DNA of 64,000 nucleotides from Octopus vulgaris. Its lineage: Eukaryota. The notes beneath the pieces are model-generated. The model ran no database searches. It was not told where the DNA came from and saw only the letters and a list, made by a program, of their open reading frames with translations. Below are positions 4,363 to 45,336 of the stretch, in pieces (the stretch's first letter is position 1; every line of letters begins with the position of its first letter). A program made the position numbers and the translations under genes. The stretch is from assembly GCA_951406725.2 (NCBI GenBank), contig OX597830.1:372001-436000 (forward strand), given 5' to 3'.

Positions 4363-4412
4363 TTTGTCAAAATATTTTCGTCGCTAAAATCCGCGACCTG
4401 TTCACTGACAAA
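4363..4412 (-). ncRNA. Type I hammerhead-like motif, G3:C8 variant (left-arm copy)
   Basis: Reverse complement of 6085-6134. Confidence 0.65.
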
Positions 4413-6084
4413 GTCCGTGCTGCATCTAAGAAAGTAACAGTTAGTTCGTCATATATATGTATGTACGTATGTATGTGTGTATGTATGCATACATGTGTGT
4501 ATGTATGTACGTATTCATGTCCGCACATACGCCTGTGTATGCATGTATGTATGTATGTATGTATATATGTATGTGTGTGTATAAGCACGCACATACACTC
4601 TATAAAACATAAAGTTATAAACCTGTAGCGATGGATGGATGTAGAGTGACCACTCATCACAACGCTATCAAATTTCAACTCCCTACGGCCGAGGCTAGAA
4701 AGTGAATTTATGACGCTTGCTCACAAGAACTATACCCTAAAATCTATTATCAGATTTTTATCTCTATATCACAGAACTAATGTTTTACTATTGTTCGTAT
4801 GTATGTATGTATGTGCGTATGTATGTATGTATGTATGTATGTATGTATGTATGTATGTATGTATGTATGTATGTATGTATGTATGTATGTATGTACATAC
4901 GTACGCATGTGCGTATGTATGTATACGCGCCCGTATGCATGTGCCCATGTATGTGTGTGTACATGTACGTGCGTATGTACGTGTGTATGCCCATACGTAG
5001 GTATGTATGTATGTTTGTATTCATGTGCTACGTATGTATGTGAGTGTCTAGGAGAATGGGCAGATGTGTCCGTGAGAGTGTGTACATGTGTATGTGTATG
5101 TGAACGTATGTCCGTGTACTGGCATGTGTCCGTCCAAGTTGTGTACATGACTGTTACTTAGCTGAAGGTTGTATACATATTTACATATATGTTTGTATAG
5201 ACGCACACACATATATATATATGTGTGTGGGTGTGTGTTTGTTCCTCTCATCGTCGTCTAACCGTAGACGACGATGAGAGGAACAAACACACACCCACAC
5301 ACATATATATATATGTGTGTGCGTCTATACAAACATATATGTAAATATGTATACAACCTTCAGCTAAGTAACAGTCATGTACACAACTTGGACGGACACA
5401 TGCCAGTACACGGACATACGTTCACATACACATACACATGTACACACTCTCACGGACACATCTGCCCATTCTCCTAGACACTCACATACATACGTAGCAC
5501 ATGAATACAAACATACATACATACCTACGTATGGGCATACACACGTACATACGCACGTACATGTACACACACACATACATGGGCACATGCATACGGGCGC
5601 GTATACATACATACGCACATGCGTACGTATGTACATACATACATACATACATACATACATACATACATACATACATACATACACATACATACATACATAC
5701 GAACAATAGTAAAACATTAGTTCTGTGATATAGAGATAAAAATCTGATAATAGATTTTAGGGTATAGTTCTTGTGAGCAAGCGTCATATATTCACTTTCT
5801 AGCCTCGGCCGTAGGGAGTTGAAATTTGATAGCGTTGTGATGAGTGGTCACTCTACATCCATCCATCGCTACAGGTTTATAACTTTATGTTTTATAGAGT
5901 GTATGTGCGTGCTTATACACACACATACATATATACATACATACATACATACATGCATACACAGGCGTATGTGCGGACATGAATACGTACATACATACAC
6001 ACATGTATGCATACATACACACATACATACGTACATACATATATATGACGAACTAACTGTTACTTTCTTAGATGCAGCACGGAC

Positions 6085-6134
6085 TTTGTCAGTGAACAGG
6101 TCGCGGATTTTAGCGACGAAAATATTTTGACAAA
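6085..6134 (+). ncRNA. Type I hammerhead-like motif, G3:C8 variant
   Basis: Stem I TTTGTCA/TGACAAA; core GTGAACA-G; stem II GTCGC/GCGAC; GAAA; palindromic stem III AATATT; UUU site. Confidence 0.65.
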
Positions 6135-7184
6135 TTAAACTTAAATGTTGGAGTGAATCGAACGGCTTTTGTGTGTTTCTTAAATGGCTTATAAACACCT
6201 CCCACGCTGCAATTGTTTTCGTTTCAGCACACGATCTCAGATCAAATTACTTGCTATGCGAGTACATCTCCGTAATATATATATATATATATATATATAT
6301 ATATATACATACGTATATATATATATATTTTTATAAAAAATTCTTTAATTTTATCTAGTTTCAGCTCACGAGCTGTGGCTATGCTGGGGCACCGCCATTC
6401 AGTGTTGCTACATAATTTTACTTCACGAAAGCTTTTTAGCAATTGATATTTGGTGCATGAGAGAATTTGATGCAGCTGCCCTCATCTGCACCTCCTGCCG
6501 TGAAGTTATGCAGGTCTCTCAGGTTCATCGGGAGCATATTGAAGAGCTCCGAAGCCCAGGCTATCACAGTATCTTGTCCTACATCTTGATGGCAAATTTG
6601 GAGTCCTTGGCACTATACAGTGGCGCCCAGTTCTGGCATTTGTGTAACACTCGATGCCAAAGTTTGGGACAAGTCCTTCTAGGATCTTCCAGATGTATAT
6701 TATGGCATATCTTTCTCGCCTACGCTCTAAGGAATACAGTCTTAATCTCTTGAGTCTTTCCCAATAGTTTTATGCTGCACAGAGGCTATCTTCGTGTAGC
6801 TTCGTTGGTTCGCCTCAAATTCTGTGATTAACTTGACACTGGTTGGTGACCATAGCTGAGAGCAATAGTCAAAGTGGCTTAGGACAGGTGTCCTCCAAGA
6901 GAACCATCATGGTTTCCTGGTCTCTTGTTCTAAAAGCTCTAAGAATCCATCCGGTCAGCCGCCATTGTATTCATTGGGTATTGCATTTAGTTTTGCATGC
7001 TGATAGCATAAAGCTTGAAACTTTTCAGCATTGAACTGCATGCTATTTTTTCAGCCCACTTGTATATTTTGTCCAGGTTACATTGCAGGTGCATAGTGTC
7101 TTCAGGGTTCCGTATTACCTGTGAAACTTTTGTATCATCTGCATAGCTTGTGATCGTGGCTCTCTGCGTGGCTGAGGGCATGTC

Positions 7185-9074
7185 TTAGAGGGCCATTATG
7201 AACAGTAGTGGTCCCAAAACAGTGCCTTGCGGAACACCACTCACTATTTGCGTATTATTGGAGGTGGCCCCATTGGCTACTACCACCTGACTTCTATCCT
7301 TCAGAAAGTCATGAAGCCATTCTCCCAATTTTCCAACTATGCCAAGATCACGCAGTATGTGACATATCATTTCATGATCGACTTTATCAAAGGCCTTTGC
7401 AAAGTCGAGATATATCACTTCCACATGTGAGAGGTTGAGCAGTCGTTTCAGCACCCAGTCATAGTGTTGTAGGAGCTGAGTTAGGCTGCTTCTTCCTGGT
7501 CGGAAACCATGTCGGGTATCAGACAGCAAGTTATTTTCTTCAAGGAAGGCGATTAGTTTCCTTCTGACTATTCGTTCCATGACCTTGCTGATGTGTGAGG
7601 TCAGACAGATAGGTCTGTAGTTCTTGGCCTCCGCACTACGATCTCCTTTATGAATAAGGAATATTTTACCTTCTTTAAGTTTTCTTGGAAGTTTGCTAGT
7701 TGCAAGAAAGCTCTGAAAGAGGAACTGCAGTGGTCTTGCTAGGACTCTCTTACATACTTTTAGAAGAATTGTTGGGAATCCATCGTGGCCAGTAGCTGAG
7801 TTTGGGTTCATTTTATCTATAGCCTTTATTACACCGTCTTCCTTTATATTGATGTAATCAATCATCACTGCCTCTGATTTTATATCTGCAGTGGTAAAGA
7901 AGTCATTTGGATTGCTGATTTGAAAATGCCCTAGGGGTGGAGTGAAAATACTCTTGAATTGCTCATTTAGTATTTCACTTATCCTCATTGGATTTCCTGT
8001 GAGTATACCATCTTTTTCAAGGAGTGGCTCTATCCTACAATTCACCGCAGCTGTTTCTTTGGCAAACTTGTAGAAAGCTCTGCAGACAAGTTGCAGACAT
8101 TTTTCAATTTCCAACAGTTTTATTTTCAGGCGGGACTTTTCACTGCTTTCAATTTGTTTGTTTAGGAGATTTGAAACTTTTGTACGCCGTCTCATAAGAA
8201 TTTTCCTTTCTCTGGAGATTTTGTTCTTGTGTACAGTGGCTTTTCTCTCTGGGACACATTTGTAGCATATGGCTTGCATTACAGACATGGATTGTTGAAG
8301 TTTCATGTCGATGTCTGGCGAGGAGAGACATTCAGGCCAGTTTTGTTTGAGGATCTCTTTCTCAATTTGTTTCCAGTTTGCCTTATGGAAGTTCAAGCTG
8401 GAAAGATTCTGAGGGTTTCTTGTAGGCTGCATGTCCGTGCTCTCTTTTGGCGCGTACATGGTCAGCTCTACCATGTTGTGATCCGAGAGTAGTGTCGGTG
8501 TCACTTTCACATTAGGGATGAGATCCATATTATTTGTGAAGCAGAGATCCAGTATGTTACCTGCCCTGGTTGGCTGGAGTATTACCTGCTCCATGTACAG
8601 AGTGTTGATGAGGTTCAGGAGGGACCTCACCTGTCCTCGTTTGCATCGTGTCATTCCTGGGAGAGAAAGGCCCTCGGGCCATCTGACATTGGGCAGATTG
8701 AAGTCTCCCATAAGAAGTACACTTACGTGTTGTTCTAATGTGACTAGAACTTCTATTTTTGTAAGGCAATCTTCAAAATTGCCTACATGACTTGGAGCGT
8801 CTGGAGGGCGATATGTAGCACATATAACTACACCGAGTTGCCTAATATGTACAATTAGTGTGTCACACACCGAATTTGAGTCTGACAAATGGACCTGGTG
8901 TGTGAGGTCCTCGCGGATGTACATAACAACTCCACCATGACTCCTTTCTTTTCTGTCGGTCCGTAGTACAACATACTTTGGTATGTGTATTTCCGCATCT
9001 GCTGTGTCCGGTTTCAGGTGTGTTTCCGTAAGTACTATGCATAAGGCTTGATTGCAGGCAACAAGGTCTCTCAA
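7185..9074 (-). CDS. LINE ORF2 (APE endonuclease + RT), 629-aa open segment ending at a premature stop before YADD
   Basis: Motifs as above; reading continues in 6987-7181 (SYADDTK). Probably non-functional. Confidence 0.85.
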   Translation of the reverse strand: MRDLVACNQALCIVLTETHLKPDTADAEIHIPKYVVLRTDRKERSHGGVVMYIREDLTHQVHLSDSNSVCDTLIVHIRQLGVVICATYRPPDAPSHVGNFEDCLTKIEVLVTLEQHVSVLLMGDFNLPNVRWPEGLSLPGMTRCKRGQVRSLLNLINTLYMEQVILQPTRAGNILDLCFTNNMDLIPNVKVTPTLLSDHNMVELTMYAPKESTDMQPTRNPQNLSSLNFHKANWKQIEKEILKQNWPECLSSPDIDMKLQQSMSVMQAICYKCVPERKATVHKNKISRERKILMRRRTKVSNLLNKQIESSEKSRLKIKLLEIEKCLQLVCRAFYKFAKETAAVNCRIEPLLEKDGILTGNPMRISEILNEQFKSIFTPPLGHFQISNPNDFFTTADIKSEAVMIDYINIKEDGVIKAIDKMNPNSATGHDGFPTILLKVCKRVLARPLQFLFQSFLATSKLPRKLKEGKIFLIHKGDRSAEAKNYRPICLTSHISKVMERIVRRKLIAFLEENNLLSDTRHGFRPGRSSLTQLLQHYDWVLKRLLNLSHVEVIYLDFAKAFDKVDHEMICHILRDLGIVGKLGEWLHDFLKDRSQVVVANGATSNNTQIVSGVPQGTVLGPLLFIMAL

Positions 9075-44866: not shown

Positions 44867-44867
44867 A

Positions 44868-45119
44868 CCTGCATAACTTGTGATCGTGGCTCTCTGCGTG
44901 GCTGAGGGCATGTCTGAGAGGGCCATTATGAACAGTAGTGGTCCCAAAACAGTGCCCTGCGGAACACCGCTCAATATTTGGGCAGCTGCATCGAACTCTC
45001 TCATGCACCAAATGGCAGTTGCTAAAAAGCATTCGTGAAGTAAAACCATGTAGCAACACCAAATGGCGGTGCCCCAGCATGGCCACAGCTCATGAGCTGA
45101 AACTAGAATCAATCAATCA
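44868..45119. mobile_element. 5'-inverted short copy of the 6.3-10 kb LINE family
   Basis: 44868-44979 is a minus-strand RT piece ([13 protein letters not shown]); 44980-45119 is the plus-strand 3' end with an (ATCA)n tail. Confidence 0.9.
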
Positions 45120-45190
45120 TATATATACGTATATATATATATATATATATATATATATATATATATATATATATATATATATATATATAT

Positions 45191-45336
45191 AAAAGGAAAT
45201 GAAGAAAATGCTGACAAATAATTGAAGTAATTTAAGTAATTTAATTAGGTGAAAGTTCTTTTTACCGGTTGCGCATTTGTTATGCTTATCAAAATATAAA
45301 AGAGAGATTAGAGTTCCTTTCTTATAGAATTTTTCT
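45191..45336 (-). mobile_element. Single diverged copy of the 20.1-kb palindrome arm
   Basis: Shares GGAAATGAAGAAAATGCTGACAAA and GGTGAAAGTTCTTTTTACCGGTTGCGCATTTGTTATGCTTATCAAAA. Confidence 0.9.

Follow-up and report, generated by a model that had tools for sequence, protein, structure and literature searches.

Family-level core variants of hammerhead motifs in Penelope-like elements and a retrozyme of Octopus vulgaris

Why do Penelope-like elements (PLEs) and retrozymes keep hammerhead motifs? The question is raised here for a window of 64,000 nucleotides of the Octopus vulgaris genome (contig OX597830.1, positions 372,001 to 436,000), where families with variant cores would give a natural test of the need for the cut. 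An initial annotation of this window had described about eight elements with a common fold, in which positions 3 and 8 were always Watson-Crick paired.

Hammerhead motifs of the window

The window was scanned with a strict descriptor that required 4 bp or more in stems I and II and a palindromic stem III, left positions 3 and 8 free and made a base after A9 optional. Eight matches were found (6092, 12863, 14825, 38490 and 43717 on the plus strand; 4405, 38038 and 41372 on the minus strand). Only two were found in total over 60 block-wise dinucleotide shuffles (mean 0.03, maximum 1), which speaks against chance folding. A tighter first descriptor, with no extra base after A9 and stem II of at most 45 nt, gave just three matches in the window. 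An additional base separates A9 from stem II at 6092, 13781 and 41372.

All seven plus-strand heptamer cores of the initial annotation were recovered in place, and its minus-strand motif corresponds to 41342-41376. The common fold was confirmed for the eight strict matches, but not for two of the listed elements. The motif at 13781 carries U6, and the motif at 20301 has GCAA instead of GAAA, only two contiguous stem I pairs and a hammerhead fold that is not the minimum free energy (MFE) structure. Because both had been taken as fitting the fold, the A6U family was overlooked. The reported proximity to (TA)n was evident, as a (TA)6+ run lies within 350 nt of 11 of the 14 motif copies, compared to 30% of positions sampled each 50 nt. 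The assignment to type I hammerheads of PLEs was also correct; the motifs were located in PLE 3' ends, plus one retrozyme. The long open reading frames of the window are LINE-type fragments and were rejected as parents of the hammerheads. No hammerhead was present among the best 150 of 317 Rfam matches for the window, a table dominated by microsatellite matches.

Families A, B, D, E, F, G and H form a three-way junction of stems I-III, open at stem I (Table 1). Family C does not have the type I fold, as its stem I fails. The canonical core (C3 U4 G5 A6 N7 G8 A9, G12 A13 A14, A15.1-U16.1, H17) is found in families F, G and H and in the U4 subfamily of D. The other cores are variant at the family level: U3:A8 in A, G3:C8 in B, U6 in E, C4 in the second subfamily of D, U3:A8 with C13 in C, and C9 in a sister of family B. 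Copy-specific decay was rejected as the origin of G3:C8, U3:A8 and U6, since these states are common to the copies of each family. As the initial annotation stated, a search for CUGANGA only misses the G3:C8 and U3:A8 families. The 3-8 pair is Watson-Crick in all eight window families and in 14 of 15 strict matches from genome samples that were evenly spaced and 800 kb in total. The claim that this is always so did not hold genome-wide, where related retrozyme subfamilies with U3·G8 and C3·A8 have been amplified.

Between the hammerheads and a fixed 3' end, which is inserted in (TA)n, lie 100-250 nt. Stem pairs are swapped for alternative pairs among homologues, and GIY-YIG/RT frames are linked to families B, E and G. 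Partial-tandem pseudo-LTRs, 5' truncation, an inverted 5' copy and a microsatellite target, features of EN+ PLEs, were seen in loci L171-L179 and in the window; pseudo-LTRs, 5' truncation, inverted 5' copies and microsatellite targets are described for PLEs in the available part of PMC8557442. Several PLE-family tails in octopus carry hammerhead-shaped RNAs predicted to be self-cutting.

Table 1. Hammerhead motifs and associated features of the window
Feature	Position	Strand	Description
Family A retrozyme-like unit	14686..15091	+	~361-bp monomer + 44-bp terminal repeat, between (TA)n runs
Family A hammerhead	14819..14860	+	U3:A8, 6-bp stem I, 4-bp stem II, palindromic stem III, C17
Family B hammerhead	6085..6134	+	G3:C8, extra G after A9, 5-bp stem II, palindromic stem III, U17
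Family B hammerhead, inverted copy	4363..4412	-	Within 4283-6272, beside (TA)n
Family C hammerhead-like motif	20298..20335	+	U3:A8 and A13C, broken stem I
Family C further copies	N3 at 20203 and 45292	both -	Motif copies
Family D hammerhead, U4 subfamily	41342..41376	-	C3:G8, extra A after A9, U17
Family D hammerhead, C4 (U4C) subfamily	44194..44228	+	Absent from the list of the initial annotation
Family E GIY-YIG-like C-terminal coding tail	13144..13330	+	Translation; starts at (TA)n run
Family E hammerhead	13776..13813	+	C3:G8, U6, extra A after A9, minimal stem III
Family F hammerhead	12858..12952	+	C3:G8, 66-nt stem-loop II
Family G RT + GIY-YIG-like coding remnant	42200..43400	+	Translation; broken, 5' of the family G hammerhead
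Family G hammerhead	43712..43794	+	C3:G8, 54-nt stem-loop II, in PLE 3' UTR
Family H hammerhead	38484..38546	+	C3:G8, 30-nt stem-loop II, 10-nt palindromic stem III
Family H further copies	N3 at 38038, 37464	both -	37464 decayed, U4A

Variant families and the 3-8 pair

The plus-strand motif of family B lies within the 3' pseudo-LTR of an EN+ PLE, and the stretch around both motifs corresponds to a PLE end truncated on its 5' side, accompanied by an inverted partial 5' copy. G3:C8 was found in 98 of the first 100 copies listed among the 1,942 of the family, and is retained in an older subfamily. Of 39 sites in the core and stems one varied, as a wobble, compared to 19 of 136 in the loops and flanks. 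In L171, the motif occurs as direct repeats around a 777-aa RT+GIY-YIG frame, plus an inverted 5' copy. This element has a deletion and a frameshift, and an intact family B master was not seen. RT-like and GIY-YIG-like motifs are present in the family B protein P0001. The Pfam search gave no match for P0001 itself or for three further family B frames; among 48 aligned homologues, GIY-YIG was matched in five and RVT_1 in four. A Cys-rich linker in P0001 is suggestive of Neptune/Nematis, following the available part of PMC8557442. A metagenome scan gave three loci, one of them with a usable hammerhead.

A homologous sister of family B, at the level of 54% amino acid identity, has C3:G8 together with the C9 core variant, and the 3' ends of the two align (score 74 vs 21±9). 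An element of the sister is intact and has a protein of 1,312 aa. C3:G8 is also present in an outgroup at 42% amino acid identity, and the stems are compensatory in both sister and outgroup. Judged from these alignments, the homologous elements covary between G3:C8 and C3:G8. The earlier proposal of covariation is supported to this extent, but the selection on the 3-8 pair is seemingly weak or episodic, as described below for the retrozymes.

The A6U family, family E, is the strongest new item. U6 is present in 96.6% of its 14,734 copies. The 496 copies without U6 have C (69), A (19) or G (12) among the first 100 listed; this spectrum is decay-like, and an A6 subfamily within family E was rejected. 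Between subfamilies, 0 of 29 core and stem sites were polymorphic compared to 34 of 148 flank sites (p=0.0016). N7 has four states with at least three changes and H17 two states with one change, the core and stems otherwise being frozen. The copies share a fixed 3' end followed by (TA)n; at the window locus, the 3' end is interrupted by a LINE fragment. The coding tail at this locus is, we assume, similar to Penelope/Poseidon endonuclease ends. The family E master was not found, because three intervals between direct copies contained no RT frame, and no RT-bearing master was seen for family D. A GIY-YIG piece 5' of family E in L198 was rejected as its own, as it belongs to a relative of family G.

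The family C motif is likely degenerate. It is found in a PLE-like 3' end with an inverted partial copy, and the copies have a fixed 3' end followed by (TA)n. The 3' arrangement of family G was also found in a relative.

Family A is a dispersed, non-coding tandem monomer with one type I hammerhead each and a unit spacing of 361-363 bp. It has 584 candidate copies, 40 of which scored at 99-100%. The monomer is wrapped by a 392-nt contig in run X10, which is guessed to be RNA, and tandem DNA would look alike. Contigs of four runs, also of guessed RNA nature, cover family A, with ends, strand and circles invisible there. Genome-wide, U3·G8 accounted for 24 of the first 100 non-C3 matches listed and formed clades. 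A C3·A8 subfamily of near-identical copies was found at eight loci on four contigs, one locus being a tandem trimer. Alternative pairs occur in stems I and II of the retrozymes, and in a picked sample every one of the 45 distinct rows had Y-R at 3-8. By copy count, the class has little 3-8 covariation, with about 69% Watson-Crick compared to about 63% expected from the margins, both estimated from the first 100 rows of each of two listings. One lineage likely went from U:A over C·A to C:G, judging by a phylogeny in which the C:G end is one locus only (branch support 82/91). Because U3·G8 and C3·A8 subfamilies were amplified, selection on the 3-8 pair looks weak or episodic.

Predicted catalysis and competing explanations

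For families A, G and H, the cofold MFE was a dimer with intermolecular stem III and intact stems I and II. It was not a clean dimeric hammerhead for B, D, E and F, and C was not hammerhead-folding. G8C costs 10^5-fold in vitro (PMC8495972). As single changes at positions 3, 8 and 6 are strongly deleterious in vitro, the U6, C9 and C13 families may, by analogy, be inactive. In the parts of the following sources that were available, the 3-8 pair forms in the active hammerhead conformation (PMC3884650), and eight of nine predicted Xenopus retrozyme dimers were without cleavage in vitro (10.64898/2026.07.22.740005). Cleavage of a lizard PLE is slow, needs the PLE protein and is restored in part by C3G/G8C; it is dispensable for insertion in a single in vitro system, where dead ribozymes still insert (PMC11167929, in part).

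We hold with moderate confidence that these are family-fixed variant type I hammerheads in PLE and retrozyme 3' repeats, with slow, dimeric, protein-helped self-cutting under weak selection. In a tandem or pLTR-ORF-pLTR transcript, two palindromic stems III would pair, and each core would cut its partner after H17. Since the cut would be useful yet not strictly required for insertion, master copies in which 3-8 is a wobble (U·G or C·A) could spread. In the longer term, lineages regaining a Watson-Crick pair would persist, leading to the C:G, U:A and G:C states. A bolder version is conceivable but tentative: octopus PLEs would run working protein-assisted hammerheads with a new-to-nature G3:C8 and a selected U6 (more than 14,000 exact copies), the genome would keep the compensatory path from U:A to C:G in the form of mobile wobble intermediates, C·A and U·G, and the PLE protein would rescue a core intolerable to naked RNA.

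Alternatively, the fold could be retained not as a catalyst but because the PLE RT recognizes it for binding or priming, with the core kept for shape and the cut dispensable or lost. Large, successful families with U6, C4, C9 or C13 and frozen stems fit such a role. So do the normal insertion of lizard PLE catalytic mutants in vitro and the zero RNA-seq reads ending at the cut site (PMC11167929, available part), as well as Naiad PLEs, which reportedly thrive without canonical hammerheads (PMC8557442, available part). We nevertheless regard this explanation as unlikely: the variable sites (N7, H17, which is never G, and loop II) are those free under catalytic rules, and the double transversion to G3:C8 restores the pair of the active conformation (PMC3884650, available part).

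It is improbable that the variant cores are dead passengers, inherited from a mutated master that went on jumping for unrelated reasons, and that the Watson-Crick states are chance or ancestral. In family E, at least three changes at N7, one at H17 and many in the flanks left 29 core and stem sites untouched; family B shows the same trend (1/39 vs 19/136), and G3:C8 requires two mutually complementing transversions. Family C, with A13C and a broken stem I, does fit this explanation, the amplified C·A and U·G subfamilies agree with it, and copies from one master are not independent evidence. An essential, efficient self-cleavage with strict Watson-Crick 3-8 covariation in every mobile family would match the pairs of the window families and of the genome samples. 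It is contradicted by both the U3·G8 clades and the C3·A8 subfamily, and is very hard to credit.

Matched natural alleles, all transposed, are at hand: G:C and C:G in sister PLEs, U6 and A6 in sister families, and, within a single retrozyme lineage, U:A, C·A, U·G and C:G. Measured rates of cleavage can therefore be compared with age and copy number. Cleavage by U6 and G3:C8 would mean that the accepted consensus for the core is drawn too narrowly and that tens of thousands of motifs escape descriptor searches in the octopus genome alone. If these cores do not cleave, the conserved fold has a non-catalytic role.

Comparison with known hammerheads

PLE hammerheads, U3:A8 and dimer cleavage are already known from PMC4209133, cited here from the part available. 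The metazoan PLE pLTR hammerheads described there are, as in octopus, of type I with an extra base 9/10.1 and a palindromic minimal stem III. They likewise occur as many divergent families per genome, where most copies are truncated and solo or form inverted pairs. U3-A8 families include about 1,300 matches in S. mansoni, and one Saccoglossus representative has U3 with G8. The representatives in Fig. S3 of that source include no G3:C8, U6, C4, C9 or C13 and no cephalopod, whereas octopus has families of thousands of copies with these states fixed.

Family A resembles the metazoan non-LTR retrozymes (PMC7229834; 10.64898/2026.07.22.740005; both in part) in its non-coding monomer of about 361 bp, within the class range of about 150-400 bp, with one hammerhead per unit. 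The canonical size of its hammerhead and the PLE-style tandem or inverted insertions are also as in these retrozymes. Compared to the retrozymes in these sources, the octopus class is dominated by U3:A8, and its U·G and C·A subfamilies have been amplified.

Rare natural examples of U3-A8 covariation are given in the available part of PMC3088659. A natural A6C in phage Bcep176 cleaves slowly, prefers Mn2+ and is poor in Mg2+ (PMC7151607, available part). G3:C8 and A6U, both present in octopus, are unmentioned among the natural core variants in the available parts of these two sources. Natural families with either state were not found in the literature searched, in which coverage of key hammerhead and PLE studies was incomplete. 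The closest counterpart is the PLE hammerhead of the Anolis Poseidon PAc, where G3:C8 is a laboratory double mutant, C3G/G8C, that is partly active and protein-assisted (PMC11167929, available part). In octopus, in contrast, G3:C8 is the wild-type state of the recently active family B.

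Hammerhead motifs of the window and their host elements

The window (G000:C17:372001-436000) belongs to a 2.8-Gb genome of 227 contigs, which is taken to be that of an octopus because a protein recorded as Octopus vulgaris matches it at 100%. The window was searched with a descriptor in which positions 3 and 8 were free, stem III was strictly palindromic and a base after A9 was optional. Eight matches were obtained in the window compared to two in total from 60 shuffles of it, which speaks against chance as the source of the folds. Eighty evenly spaced 10-kb genome samples gave 15 matches at seven loci (13 C:G, one G:C and one A·A at positions 3-8) and three matches in three shuffles. 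The window therefore lies above the genome average, and the group is a local cluster, since 110 kb of flanking DNA (L180-L190) gave only two strict matches. The seven plus-strand cores and the minus-strand motif of the initial annotation were found in their places. A (TA)6+ run was present within 350 nt of 11 of 14 motif copies, versus 30% of sampled positions. The fold claimed for all elements was observed in most of them, the exceptions being 13781, with U6, and 20301, with GCAA, a two-pair stem I and an MFE structure other than a hammerhead. The window is full of microsatellites, LINE fragments and short dispersed repeats; microsatellite matches dominated an Rfam scan, and no hammerhead was among the best 150 of 317 matches.

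Coordinates of motifs, elements and repeats (window positions unless a locus or contig is named)
Feature	Position	Remarks
Family A motif	14825	U3:A8
Family B motif	6092; mirror 4405	G3:C8
Family C motif	20301	
Family D motif	41372(-); 44194	
Family E motif	13781	U6
Family F motif	12863	
Family G motif	43717	
Family H motif	38490	
Family B palindrome	4283-6272	near-perfect, 2 kb; genuine inverted-plus-direct PLE insertion
Family E start	13144	GIY-YIG-like tail
Family H array	37056-38901	tandem and inverted; three hammerhead copies, one U4A
Family D, larger subfamily	44194-44228; L221-L250	U4C; 6/9 copies in evenly spaced samples
Stem-loop II of 30-66 nt	12858-12952; 43712-43794; 38484-38546; L093, L135, L280	several families; above usual descriptor limits
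Sister family of B	L251-L260, e.g. G000:C17:6331579-6336951	copies 99% identical; frames up to ~1,312 aa; C at position 9, imperfect stem III palindrome
Chimera	L198:496-760	GIY-YIG piece from a family G relative, fused to family E's endonuclease tail and 3' UTR
Single U3:A8 copy	L249:~1973(-)	with C4
Single U3:A8 motif	L077	longer stem II
Broken LINE-type elements	7185-9092(-); 29971-34202(+); 23323-23898(+)	apurinic endonuclease and RT domains; unrelated to hammerheads
184-195-bp dispersed repeat	16942-17182; 24694-25102; 40182-40656	short tandems too; similar to octopus SINE families

The window hammerheads are real, and those traced to a host are mostly carried by Penelope-like elements (PLEs). 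The family B motif marks the terminal repeat of a PLE that encodes an endonuclease. At another locus, L171, a 777-aa RT and GIY-YIG-like frame stands between two direct copies spaced 4.26 kb, and an inverted copy lies upstream. A Pfam search with this protein itself gave no match, and among its aligned homologues GIY-YIG was found in 5/48 and RVT_1 in 4/48. Compared to the sister family of B, a young and apparently intact PLE family, L171 has a deletion and a frameshift, and no intact family B master was seen among the loci examined. Inverted and direct family B pairs recur across the genome at spacings of 0.3-8 kb. Family E copies elsewhere have a fixed 3' end about 110 nt beyond the hammerhead, followed by (TA)n, and family D is akin to family E in motif and flanks. 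The family G hammerhead lies downstream of RT and GIY-YIG remnants, and family C has a PLE-like layout, truncated and inverted. The chimera at L198 is likely a template switch product. Family A consists of non-coding units of roughly 361 bp, frequently in tandem or inverted arrangement, and is by its structure classed as a retrozyme; 584 candidates were found in the genome, and the 40 scored were 99-100% alike. BLAST in the 800-kb evenly spaced sample found 17 E, 10 B, 9 D and no A or C, which by rough extrapolation would put the number of E, B and D ends in the genome in the tens of thousands.

Core variants of single families

An exact pattern with N6 and N7 free gave 14,734 copies of family E, only 496 of them without U6. 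The core at 13781 was correctly located by the initial annotation; its U6, a family trait, breaks that annotation's own descriptor. Position 7 in the first 100 rows (hand count) was U in 42, A in 25, C in 18 and G in 11, the other four being non-U6 rows. A set of 42 E-like copies that had not been selected on the motif, some of them incomplete and one belonging to D, showed polymorphism at the subfamily level at 0/29 core and stem sites versus 34/148 flank sites (Fisher p=0.0016), the flank figure possibly inflated by low-complexity columns; N7 and H17 were polymorphic. The U6 family appears to be under selection. In copies mostly chosen by likeness to the window, C4 was present in 39/47 of family D, C13 in 36/39 of family C, and U3 and A8 each in 46/47 of family A, confirming U3:A8 as a family trait. 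C4 is present too in long-stem-II motifs of four other loci (L081, L178, L275, L277).

Family B, counted with N3, N7 and N8 free, comprised 1,942 exact copies. G3:C8 was found in 98 of the first 100 and is kept in an older subfamily, and is likewise a trait of its family. Sites with subfamily-level polymorphism were 0/11 in the core, 1/28 in the stem, 4/9 in the loop and 15/127 in the flank. The sister family had C3:G8 with C9 in 16/16 copies read (10 loci), its stems I and II being formed in part by alternative base pairs. The 3' ends of the two families are homologous (alignment score 74 versus 21+-9 over 500 shuffles, of which the highest reached 53), and the core of an outgroup that shares 42% protein identity is canonical. 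Since the sister, too, has C3:G8, G3:C8 is likely the derived state, reached via two transversions. U17 is common to both families; by analogy to the C3-G17 pair, reported as inhibitory (PMC3884650), its presence may prevent a pair between G3 and C17.

The 3-8 pair across the genome

Type I motifs of canonical size, with loop II set at 6 nt, were sought by pattern, which gave 1,944 non-C3 matches (control 86) and 361 C3 matches (control 12). Hand counts of the first 100 rows gave 73 U:A, 24 U·G, 1 U·U, 2 A3 and 0 G3 for the former, and 52 C·A, 46 C:G and 2 C·U for the latter. Decay of U:A copies likely accounts for many of the C·A rows, though not for all. As wobble pairs, C·A+ and U·G are nearly isosteric. 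In a tree built with positions 3 and 8 masked, the U·G copies fall into clades amid U:A relatives (59/119 rows, largest homology group). In a second masked tree (27 rows), 12 near-identical C·A units (8 loci, 4 contigs) and 6 C:G units, all from one locus, form a group with support 82/91 amid U:A relatives. Parsimony gives moderate support to a retrozyme-class path from U:A through C·A to C:G, the root not being inferred. Across the 45 distinct rows of a picked sample the 3-8 pair was always pyrimidine-purine, and stems I and II contained alternative pairs. The claim that this pair is always Watson-Crick fails genome-wide on the U·G clades and the amplified C·A subfamily.

Proposed role of the cut and comparison with known hammerheads

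Tandem transcripts, or those flanked by the PLE terminal repeat, would pair their palindromic stems III and so form two cores; cofolding gave a dimer with paired stems III as the MFE structure of A, G and H, whereas B, D, E and F had another one. The cut would be helpful yet non-essential to the element, masters with impaired cores could spread for some time, and over longer times restored 3-8 pairs would persist. We regard this as the probable reading. In a lizard PLE, the ribozyme depends on the element's own protein, insertion in vitro persists with dead ribozyme mutants, and C3G or G8C abolishes the ribozyme, the double mutant being partly active again (PMC11167929). PLE hammerheads are described as cleaving slowly as dimers (PMC4209133). 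Counting against activity are a 10^5-fold loss for G8C (PMC8495972), poor performance of A6C in Mg2+ (PMC7151607) and the lack of cleavage by 8/9 Xenopus retrozyme dimers (10.64898/2026.07.22.740005). Retention of the fold as a protein-binding signal is rather unlikely. That variant cores are dead passengers is improbable as a general account, and likely true of family C. Strict covariation with essential cleavage is very improbable, as the pair is not Watson-Crick in the U·G and C·A subfamilies.

PLE hammerhead variants were reportedly studied by Lunse in 2017. No natural G3:C8 family was found in the literature searched, where the cases read were engineered, and no natural U6 (A6U) family, the latter judged by title or abstract start for the papers listed; neither was found from octopus or cephalopods or among post-2015 core-variant papers. 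An earlier report may exist. The initial annotation had left open whether the variants were catalogued; U3:A8 is already published (PMC4209133; Perreault 2011, PMC3088659, for natural U3-A8 hammerheads). In Cervera & de la Pena 2014 (PMC4209133), the PLE hammerheads have, like the octopus motifs, an extra base after A9 and a palindromic stem III; U3-A8 occurs there too, as do numerous families within one genome, and one aligned sequence has U3 with G8. The octopus system is partly known already; new relative to known systems are a PLE family with G3:C8, a U6 family apparently under selection, and wobble intermediates that have amplified.
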